Positions 33,548 through 35,062 of a stretch of DNA of 64,000 nucleotides are shown piece by piece (position 1 is the stretch's first letter; the number at the start of each line of letters is the position of its first letter). The position numbers and the translations under genes were made by a program. Under the pieces are notes generated by a model that did not search any database, was not told where the DNA came from, and worked only from the letters and a program-made list of their open reading frames with translations. The stretch is from Escherichia phage vB_EcoM_YN3, in the sequence record PV763136.1. The stretch is one strand, 5' to 3'.

Positions 33548-33879
33548 TGACTAAAAATTCTGTAGATAATGCAATTATGGAAGCTGTTTTTGAGGATGAT
33601 CATACAACAGGGACCATTAAAACAAAAAATACATTTATTGTTGCCACAGGTATGTGGCGGTTGTATGAAGATGACACCATTTCATACATCCTGTACACGG
33701 ATGATTACGCAGATGACCGTGTATGGTCTGCTGTTTTAAAAGAGGATTGTGAGCTGATTGAGGGCGAGCGGTTATGCATGTTCACCAGTGTGGAAACAGA
33801 TGTTAAGCTTTGCTCTCTCGTCCTGTTCAAAGATAAGGCTTATGCTCCTGATGAAGGAGAGGAGGATGAGGAAGCATGA
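33544..33879 (+). CDS. hypothetical protein
   Basis: 111 aa acidic C-terminus, coupled start/stop. Confidence 0.5.
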   Translation: MMTKNSVDNAIMEAVFEDDHTTGTIKTKNTFIVATGMWRLYEDDTISYILYTDDYADDRVWSAVLKEDCELIEGERLCMFTSVETDVKLCSLVLFKDKAYAPDEGEEDEEA

Positions 33880-34505
33880 GAGAGCGTCTATTATCCATAG
33901 ACCAGTCGTTGACACACACAGCTTGCGTTGTATGGGACGATGGAAAGCCTGTTCATAAGGTTGTGTTACGAACTCAAAGCTCATCTGCAAAAGAGAAGAA
34001 ACCAGGGACGGTTTCTTTTGCAACAGCTGCTGAGCGTATTGACTGGATCTGCAAACAGGTCAGATATTATATCCACACGCACGGCGTTGACACCGTGGTT
34101 ATGGAAGGGCTTTCCTTTGGATCACGCGGAGATGCCACACGTGAACTGGCTGGGTTGTTTTACGGTCTCGAAGTTATGCTTTGGGATGCTTTAGCTGATT
34201 GTGAAAATGACGGCCTGTTTAAGGTTCACACAGTGACACCAACAACTGCCAAAAAGTTTGCTCGTAGCCATCTTCCTGAAGAACTTGCTTTTGAGGAGAA
34301 GAAAAAGCTTGACAAAAAGACAGGTAAGGAGCATACTGTGAAGAAACCTGTTACGATGGATAAAAAGTTGATGGTTAAGGCCTGCGAAGTATCTGAACCC
34401 GGGTTCCTAGATGGGATCAATTTGGTACAAGGTAAGGCCGATCTTGCAGATGCTTATTGGATAGGCAGGGCGCATCTGGAGGGATTATCGCAAAGCGTAA
34501 AATAA
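33876..34505 (+). CDS. RuvC-like Holliday junction resolvase
   Basis: LSIDQSLTHTACVVWDD N-terminal Asp motif and C-terminal DAYWIG; RBS GAGGAGG. Confidence 0.6.
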   Translation: MRERLLSIDQSLTHTACVVWDDGKPVHKVVLRTQSSSAKEKKPGTVSFATAAERIDWICKQVRYYIHTHGVDTVVMEGLSFGSRGDATRELAGLFYGLEVMLWDALADCENDGLFKVHTVTPTTAKKFARSHLPEELAFEEKKKLDKKTGKEHTVKKPVTMDKKLMVKACEVSEPGFLDGINLVQGKADLADAYWIGRAHLEGLSQSVK

Positions 34506-35062
34506 GAAAGAAAGCTGTCAAAGCCCCCGTTCATAACGGGTGGTTAAAAGATTCTAAAGACATAGCCAACTTTCGAAAAGAATTGTCAGAGGAGCAGGAT
34601 GGACTTGATCCAATCTTGTGCGAGCCACTTCGTAAGCCTTGTTTAGATCATGATCATCTGACTGGTCGTTGCAGGGGTGTTTTGTCTCAATGCACTAATA
34701 CCTTTGAGGGGTATGTGCTTAAATACTGGATGAAATACTGTAACGAGTATACAGATTGCAGTTTATCAGAGGCGTTGCGCCGGATGGCTGACTATTTGGA
34801 GAAAGACTACAGCGACTTCCCGCTCCACAAAAACTACAGAGATGATATGACAAAGTTCTTGAGGAGATGCTCTAAAGCTACGATTATTGCACGAGCAGAA
34901 TCAGATCTCAATATTGTCATTAATCCGGAGTGCACCAAGCATGAGGCTATTGAGTTCTACATGCAGGAGTTTATAAAGAAAACTGAGGAGAGAGATTTCT
35001 ATGGGGATGAAAAAGGTATTCAATCCTTGCGACTCAGTCCTGATCAGGATGAAATACCGTAA
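34457..35062 (+). CDS. endonuclease VII-like junction resolvase
   Basis: CEPLRKPCLDHDHLTGRCRGVLSQCTN matches the Endo VII zinc/His core; only TTG starts in frame (34457 or 34583); 49 nt overlap with the RuvC-like gene. Confidence 0.6.
   Translation: MDRQGASGGIIAKRKIRKKAVKAPVHNGWLKDSKDIANFRKELSEEQDGLDPILCEPLRKPCLDHDHLTGRCRGVLSQCTNTFEGYVLKYWMKYCNEYTDCSLSEALRRMADYLEKDYSDFPLHKNYRDDMTKFLRRCSKATIIARAESDLNIVINPECTKHEAIEFYMQEFIKKTEERDFYGDEKGIQSLRLSPDQDEIP

Follow-up and report, generated by a model that had tools for sequence, protein, structure and literature searches.

How can a phage gene be translated when its reading frame holds no ATG ahead of the conserved catalytic core? This question is raised by a stretch of 64,000 nucleotides (nt) from Escherichia phage vB_EcoM_YN3 (record PV763136.1; the whole stretch is referred to as the window), in which two nuclease genes lie in tandem on the + strand. 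The first (open reading frame 1, ORF1; 33876–34505, ATG start, TAA stop, 209 amino acids) encodes a RuvC-like junction nuclease. The second (ORF2, encoding an endonuclease VII homologue, hereafter EndoVII) lies in the −1 frame relative to ORF1 and is open from a TTG at 34457 to the stop at 35062 (+ strand, 201 amino acids). At the level of the open frames the two overlap by 49 nt, as stated in the original prediction, which had also remarked that the EndoVII frame contains no ATG and only TTG candidates (34457 or 34583). Both remarks hold, with one further TTG at 34616; these three TTGs are the only in-frame ATG, GTG or TTG codons before the LDHDH core.

The comparative analysis described below indicates that EndoVII is probably translated from a near-cognate AUC codon (34487–34489, + strand) placed behind a Shine-Dalgarno (SD) sequence, GGAGG, at 34478–34482. 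ORF1 and EndoVII would then be two separate genes sharing only 19 nt, and the EndoVII gene would span 34487–35062 (+ strand, 191 codons plus stop). The computations yielded the identities of both proteins, a conserved SD sequence with AUC or AUA at conserved spacing, the positional homology of this codon to canonical starts in related phages, and a switch of the frame under selection at 34487. Of the explanations considered in the original prediction, non-canonical initiation is thus supported as a mode, but at this AUC and not at the TTG codons proposed for it.

A conserved Shine-Dalgarno sequence and a candidate AUC start

The EndoVII frame was traced upstream in about 40 related loci, taken from GenBank phages and IMG/VR (L numbers designate loci). 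Within the overlap of the open frames, embedded in the 3′ end of ORF1, the window has a strong GGAGG (34478–34482, + strand), which had been overlooked in the original prediction and is followed after 4 nt by the in-frame ATC at 34487. This ATC is invariant in 12 Vequintavirus genomes. The arrangement GG[AG]GG-N4-ATC was found in Vequintavirus, a new clade comprising L015–18 (75–78% amino acid identity), Seunavirus, Mydovirus, TH18, L020–22, L025, L026 and L028, and GGAGG-N4-ATA was found in Henunavirus, FBKp34, L036 and L037; L030 has GGAGG-TAAGTA-ATC, with a spacing of 6 nt. Upstream of the AUC or AUA no in-frame ATG, GTG or TTG is present in EspYZU14, LNA4, TH18, L030 and L037, and no usable one in L095, S127 BCL3 and B9-1 (which carry a TAG at 34466). 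In TH18, L037, S127 BCL3 and B9-1 a canonical in-frame start is also missing between the AUC or AUA and the conserved domain.

The motif GG[AG]GG is retained in all lineages examined, and the ORF1 residues encoded by it vary (L/M/W/Q/K, then E/G, then G/D/E/A/V). The A of the ATC is at the same time a wobble base of ORF1, and at this wobble position A occurs without exception (codons TTA, CTA, GTA, ATA and TCA). A GGAGG that is fixed despite varying ORF1 residues, together with this constant wobble base, points to selection at the nucleotide level for an SD sequence and an AUN start. GGAGG-N4-start is also the commonest geometry of ribosome-binding sites (RBS) in the window (11 of 28 likely sites, one spurious, inside a tRNA gene). 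GGAGG itself is not rare (62 occurrences on the + strand versus about 46 expected), and its rarity was discarded as an argument; only its conservation counts.

Canonical codons occupy the homologous site in other lineages. ABPH49 has GGGGG-CTGTA-ATG, in which a TAATG overlaps the stop of the RuvC-like gene; LTH01 and W70 have GGAGG-GAGTAC-ATG, Certrevirus has GGAGG-GTATTA-GTG, L031 has an ATG, and the Aeromonas phages have GGAG followed after 4 or 5 nt by TTG. The same basic tail follows the canonical start in each lineage that has one at this site. Among the lineages with a near-cognate codon, several have an ORF1 stop that overlaps with the putative start (TAATC in L028 and L030, TAATA in L009, ATAG in L012, L036 and L037). 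The gene immediately 5′ of EndoVII is a different one in the Certrevirus-like and Aeromonas lineages, and the relative frame differs as well; initiation of EndoVII is evidently independent in these phages. The RuvC-like gene is not adjacent to EndoVII in the Certrevirus-like lineages L010, L011, L031–L035 and L107 and in the Aeromonas lineages L013, L052, L056 and L072. The Certrevirus-like phages carry an extra open frame of about 215 amino acids and unknown function between the two genes, and 4L372XY carries an HNH endonuclease and a small ORF; the order RuvC-like to EndoVII is otherwise kept in every lineage with both genes.

Selection changes frame at 34487

Polymorphisms were compared among the 12 Vequintavirus genomes, and substitutions were scored in 15 lineages with BLOSUM62 per site. 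In the 30 nt from 34457 to 34486 there are 4 polymorphic sites, all at EndoVII codon position 1, where the changes are nonsynonymous (one gives a stop), and all at ORF1 position 3, where they are synonymous. The 19 nt in which the two genes would overlap (34487–34505, + strand, dual-coding) contain no polymorphic site. Further downstream, 11 of the 16 polymorphic sites in the 77 nt from 34506 to 34582 are at EndoVII position 3 and 10 are synonymous, and from 34583 to 34732 the count at position 3 is 15 out of 17. EndoVII position-3 sites therefore number 0/4 upstream versus 26/33 downstream (P ∼0.005, hand hypergeometric calculation).

The substitution scores changed in the same manner. Over the 21 nt before the SD sequence the ORF1 frame scored +0.40 and the EndoVII frame −0.36, with EndoVII-frame stops in 3 of the 15 lineages, whereas in the 18 nt that follow the start codon the scores were +1.53 for the EndoVII frame and −0.61 for the ORF1 frame. 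Just after the ATC, for example, the window reads AAG CGT AAA ATA and L015 reads AAG CGC AAG GTA; these changes are synonymous or conservative in the EndoVII frame, but nonsynonymous in ORF1 (SQSVK versus SGSAR). Selection on these sequences changes frame at 34487, and from there on the EndoVII frame is constrained.

In principle, EndoVII could start upstream of this point, at the TTG at 34457–34459 (+ strand), which would yield a 201-residue protein and retain the 49-nt overlap. This is the first canonical codon in the frame, and the frame behind it is open in the window and in 9/12 Vequintavirus genomes. However, no SD sequence precedes it, and all four polymorphisms between this TTG and the ATC are of the kind described above, that is, nonsynonymous or nonsense for EndoVII and synonymous for ORF1. 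One of them, a C-to-T change at 34466 that is silent in ORF1 (GGC to GGT) and converts CAG to TAG in the EndoVII frame, places an in-frame stop after the TTG in 3/12 Vequintavirus genomes (L095, S127 BCL3 and B9-1). The TTG itself results incidentally from the ORF1 codons TAT TGG (Tyr-Trp) and is missing where ORF1 has Leu at that place; in other genera it is absent, and the frame 5′ of the SD sequence often holds stops. TTG 34457 was thus rejected as a conserved start, and we consider it unlikely that EndoVII begins there.

Annotated and canonical start codons

At least five different start coordinates are given for the EndoVII gene in GenBank records. TTG 34457 is annotated as the start in navn, typing phage 14, Murica, FV3 and ECP32, and TTG 34583 in Mangalyan and S127 BCL3, of which the Mangalyan record gives no RBS for it. 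The YP-6 and B9-1 records have two far-downstream starts, and in the RefSeq record of rV5 (NC_011041; gp093, 192 amino acids) the coding sequence, 75509–76087, begins at an ATT that corresponds to window position 34484. Guidelines for phage annotation include ATT and ATC among the possible start codons. A literature search found no paper on the start of this EndoVII gene; the rV5 genome paper is silent on it, and the proteomics reported there was of virions only. PHROG 29095 (‘endonuclease’, 92 positions) matches only EndoVII residues 110–201, and appears to have been built from truncated gene calls of EndoVII.

The ATT of the rV5 record (34484–34486, + strand) lies one codon before the proposed AUC. 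It was picked by the original annotators of rV5, and AUU is the one non-canonical type of start proven in E. coli. Its position argues against it: it lies only 1 nt past GGAGG (0 nt past GGAGGG), which is too near for SD pairing and placement in the P-site at the same time. Moreover, the codon is TTT in L095 and is not AUN in most other genera (AGT, TAT, GCT, GAT, CCT and others). The ATT was rejected, and initiation there is regarded as quite improbable.

The TTG at 34583–34585 (+ strand) is a canonical codon and would give a product of 159 residues, close in length to T4 gp49 (157 amino acids). The original prediction had found no SD sequence at the start that gives this T4-like length, and indeed none precedes TTG 34583. 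A start at this codon would cost the protein about 32 residues, the invariant W19 and R30 among them, and would cut the first ∼17 positions of the PHROG 423 and Pfam profiles; distant orthologues align from residue 24–30 of the 201-residue frame. In addition, the 77 nt 5′ of this TTG (34506–34582) evolve as coding sequence in the EndoVII frame, under purifying selection. This start, too, was rejected, and it is very unlikely to be the one used. In L095 (IMG/VR UViG_3300010279_000001), the genome that also carries the TAG at 34466, a change of GAA to ATG (E to M) at the equivalent of 34580–34582 creates an in-frame ATG just 5′ of the equivalent of TTG 34583, without an SD sequence.

Frameshifting and sequencing error

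The original prediction had also considered a frameshift that fuses the two nuclease domains. A programmed −1 frameshift in the overlap could proceed, for instance, by slippage in the P-site on A AAA before the TAA stop of ORF1, and would join the RuvC-like and EndoVII domains in one polypeptide. EndoVII does lie in the −1 frame of ORF1 wherever the two genes abut, and in the window A AAA is followed by a stop and preceded, 15 nt upstream, by the SD-like GGAGG. This A AAA TAA ‘shifty stop’ (34499–34505, + strand) is the only conceivable −1 slip site; it is not a heptamer and was rejected, and a search of the overlap found no slippery heptamer (X XXY YYZ) among the ORF1-frame codons from 34457 to 34505. 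The context of the A-run is not conserved over about 20 lineages, being followed by GGG, GAA or GAC, and is absent in L015–18, L009, L012, L028 and L030. RNAalifold analysis of 16 junctions gave a consensus of −0.39 kcal/mol, with no covarying pairs and no conserved structure; considered by itself, the window has a hairpin over part of the SD sequence, with a z-score (−1.64) that is not significant. In L030 an EndoVII-frame TAA stands between GGAGG and ATC, two codons before the ATC, which makes it impossible for a shift out of ORF1 to enter the EndoVII frame at this locus. Furthermore, the EndoVII-frame peptide is conserved already 5′ of the putative slip site, and orthologues have independent ATG, GTG or TTG starts, some of them downstream of unrelated genes and in another relative frame. 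A frameshift fusion is unsupported by these data and highly improbable.

Equally, a missing or extra base in the sequence or its assembly could conceal a normal start or a fused gene. Beyond the oddity of the arrangement nothing favours such an error, and the same layout occurs in 120 independently sequenced genomes (90–99% identity) and in many more distant genera. An error, also among the options raised originally, is for practical purposes excluded.

Identity of the two nucleases

ORF1 matches PHROG 159 (‘RuvC-like Holliday junction resolvase’) with an expectation value (E) of 3.3e-39. Against Pfam, it gave no match at E≤0.01 and did not reach the threshold of family PF02075, which is carried by its most distant sequence homologues (P0030 and P0032). 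Searches of the PDB by sequence were empty with the single sequence and gave only E=0.83 to RuvC with a profile; a fold search was needed to place the protein. The AlphaFold2 model of ORF1 (predicted local distance difference test score, pLDDT, 92; predicted template-modelling score, pTM, 0.88) was compared with the PDB by Foldseek. The top 13 matches were all RuvC, with E down to 4.9e-8 and target-normalised template-modelling scores of 0.71–0.78; they include the structures from T. thermophilus, D. radiodurans, P. aeruginosa, E. coli and Lactococcus phage bIL67. Residues D9, E77, D189 and D192 of ORF1 are invariant in 18 lineages (motifs SxDQS, vmE and aDxADAy); the catalytic acidic residues of E. 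coli RuvC are D7, E66, D138 and D141. Relative to bacterial RuvC, ORF1 has an insertion of about 30–50 residues (approximately residues 131–160; 34266–34350), which is rich in Lys and Glu and is modelled as a β-hairpin with strands 139–145 and 152–158. Judged by the PHROG profile, the PF02075-bearing homologues, the match of the modelled fold and the invariant acidic residues, ORF1 is a RuvC-fold junction nuclease.

ORF2 matches Pfam PF02945 (E=1.5e-7; 31.6 bits versus a cut-off of 23.6), PHROG 423 (E=3.7e-37) and the structures of T4 endonuclease VII (1e7d and 1en7, E=3e-4, across T4 residues 37–147). The catalytic DH.H...N..EG motif is kept: L53-D54-H55-D56-H57 and N71..E74-G75 of ORF2 align with LDHDH and N..EG of the T4 enzyme, in which D40, H41, H43, N62 and E65 are the ββα-Me catalytic residues. 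Nine lineages show no variation at D54, H55, H57, N71 and G75. By these profile and motif matches ORF2 is a genuine endonuclease VII homologue, and the original view that two distinct resolvase folds are encoded back to back was correct. The two nucleases are indeed a conserved pair, one that several records have annotated already.

The re-delimited EndoVII product begins with a basic tail (M-AKRKIRKKAVK...) that is conserved in relatives, and its C-terminal tail varies between genera. The core had been described as CxxC...LDHDH...CN; the LDHDH part is as described, but in place of CxxC the protein has C-x6-C (CEPLRKPC), the first Cys of which is Gly in most relatives. In total EndoVII has four Cys (C45, C52, C62 and C69; 34619–34693), and none is at a position aligned with the ligands of the structural Cys4 zinc site of T4 endonuclease VII (C23, C26, C58 and C61). 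In related lineages they are mostly replaced, LTH01 retaining one. The alignments suggest that in this clade of EndoVII the structural zinc site may be absent or built differently.

Proposed initiation at the AUC codon

In the proposed mechanism, ribosomes (30S or 70S) bound at GGAGG would place formylmethionyl-tRNA on the AUC at 34487. Reporter assays in E. coli have put initiation from AUC, AUA, AUU and CUG at ∼1–2% of that from AUG, and the AUC-initiated protein bears an N-terminal Met (Hecht et al., bioRxiv 10.1101/063800). With an efficiency of a few percent relative to AUG, the AUC would hold down the amount of a structure-specific nuclease that may be toxic. Translation of ORF1 ends 16 nt past the AUC, and the ribosomes engaged in it would probably contribute to EndoVII initiation by reinitiating; in infC, the yield from the AUU start roughly doubles when the cistron before it is translated (PMC3592434). 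The use of the AUC, the low expression and the coupling to ORF1 are inferred.

Several points weigh against the AUC start. The support for it is indirect. AUC is inefficient, and in E. coli only AUU starts (infC and pcnB) have been confirmed experimentally as non-canonical (bioRxiv 10.1101/063800). The SD spacing of 4 nt is short by E. coli standards, and the invariance of the ATC could partly reflect dual-coding constraint, as its TC begins a conserved Ser codon of ORF1. Some relatives have an in-frame GTG 7–22 codons downstream that might be used there; the window has none. Finally, the window frame is open from TTG 34457, and some initiation at that codon is possible.

L028 and L030 keep ATC even though a single C-to-G change would give TAATG at no cost for ORF1, which argues that the weak codon is tolerated, at the least, and perhaps under selection. 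An ATG in the same context is likewise viable, as seen in ABPH49. We tentatively suggest, as a possibility that is open to considerable doubt, that the AUC or AUA start is an evolutionarily maintained device that links synthesis of EndoVII to translation of the RuvC-like gene, and in which termination and reinitiation on a near-cognate codon fix a very low ratio of EndoVII to the RuvC-like protein for two resolvases acting as a functional pair; the locus would then be a natural and widely conserved example of AUC/AUA initiation among enterobacterial phages.

Both protein families are already known, as is the phenomenon of near-cognate initiation, and the RefSeq record of rV5 already has a non-canonical start, the ATT one codon 5′. 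Added here is the site itself, which is likely to be AUC (AUA in sister clades) and not ATT or TTG, and which appears from the alignments to be conserved over several genera, interchanging with ATG, GTG and TTG at the same position. If confirmed, it would be an example of natural conservation of an AUC/AUA start among phages infecting E. coli and related bacteria, with the orthologues that have ATG, GTG or TTG at the same site as built-in evolutionary controls, and thereby a handy system for studying near-cognate initiation, discrimination by initiation factor 3 (IF3) and translational coupling. It would also correct a widespread misannotation of the EndoVII start in databases, where truncated calls seem even to have seeded a separate PHROG family.

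Surroundings of the gene pair

The region 33500–35300 is matched by the 120 phage records mentioned above, the best being Escherichia phage navn (99.1%), and by this similarity the window phage is a Vequintavirus (an rV5-like myovirus). Twenty MG0656xx records named ‘Campylobacter phage’, with Campylobacter jejuni as host, are 98–99% identical to the window over the searched region; the host label of these records is doubtful, and contamination or mislabelling is possibly the reason.

The two genes belong to a tightly packed replication/recombination operon on the + strand, in which an exonuclease gene (32408–33547) and a small ORF precede ORF1 (33876–34505), and ORF2, ending at 35062, is followed by a small ORF, a DnaQ-like exonuclease gene and an N6-adenine methyltransferase gene. 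An ORF of 73 amino acids at 35001–35222 (PHROG 3715, function unknown) overlaps the 3′ end of EndoVII by 62 nt; the FV3 and YP-6 records give an EndoVII coding sequence that is shorter by 30 nt. A σ70-like match (TTGACA-17-CATACT, 10/12) lies within ORF1 at 34309–34337, ∼150 nt 5′ of the EndoVII start; an internal promoter for EndoVII was rejected, as such matches occur at chance level (6 found versus 3.8±2.0 expected).

A tRNA cluster is present at 20132–21071 on the minus strand. Its tRNA with a CAT anticodon (20223–20294) was considered as a phage-encoded initiator for AUC or AUA and rejected; it has a G1:C72 pair and lacks the GGG/CCC anticodon stem. It is probably of the elongator type, a tRNA-Ile2 reading AUA rather than a tRNA-Met, and its anticodon arm resembles that of E. 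coli ileX. ARAGORN, but not Rfam, reported a 99-nt ‘tRNA-???’ with a 4-base anticodon (20377–20475) and a tRNA-Ser (20574–20664), and Rfam alone reported, at 20782–20866, a GUA-anticodon tRNA whose variable arm is long; this one was missed by ARAGORN.

Comparison with known systems

ORF1 shares the fold (target-normalised template-modelling scores of 0.73–0.78) and the four acidic catalytic positions with the RuvC resolvases (T. thermophilus 4ld0, E. coli 1hjr, Lactococcus phage bIL67 4ktw), but is ∼50 residues longer, with a β-hairpin inserted near 139–158, and remains below the Pfam PF02075 threshold. EndoVII of the window is homologous to T4 gene 49 endonuclease VII over T4 residues 37–147 and shares the DH.H...N..E motif. 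It differs by ∼15 extra basic residues at the N-terminus, a C-terminal extension and the lack of conservation of the T4 Cys4 ligands at the homologous positions, and by a putative non-AUG start embedded in the upstream gene. Expression of T4 gene 49 is reportedly controlled translationally, with two nested products (a finding attributed to Barth et al. 1988).

With programmed −1 frameshifting, as in dnaX and the phage tail chaperones G/GT, the locus has in common a downstream ORF in the −1 frame without a canonical start and an SD-like element before an A-run. In contrast to these systems, the window has no slippery heptamer, stimulatory structure or conserved slip context, and the orthologues of EndoVII start independently.

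The closest parallels are in initiation. E. coli infC and pcnB likewise have a near-cognate AUN start behind an SD sequence, near or overlapping the end of the upstream cistron, and low expression, which is presumed here. The codon proposed for the window is AUC (AUA in sister lineages) and not AUU, the gene encodes a phage nuclease, and for EndoVII there is no evidence of autoregulation of the IF3 type. The stop-start coupling of AUGA and UAAUG junctions has the same geometry as the sister lineages (TAATC, TAATA and ATAG), and ABPH49 has the canonical TAATG itself. In the window the putative start is near-cognate and the ORF1 stop lies 16 nt 3′ of it, so that stop and start do not overlap directly.

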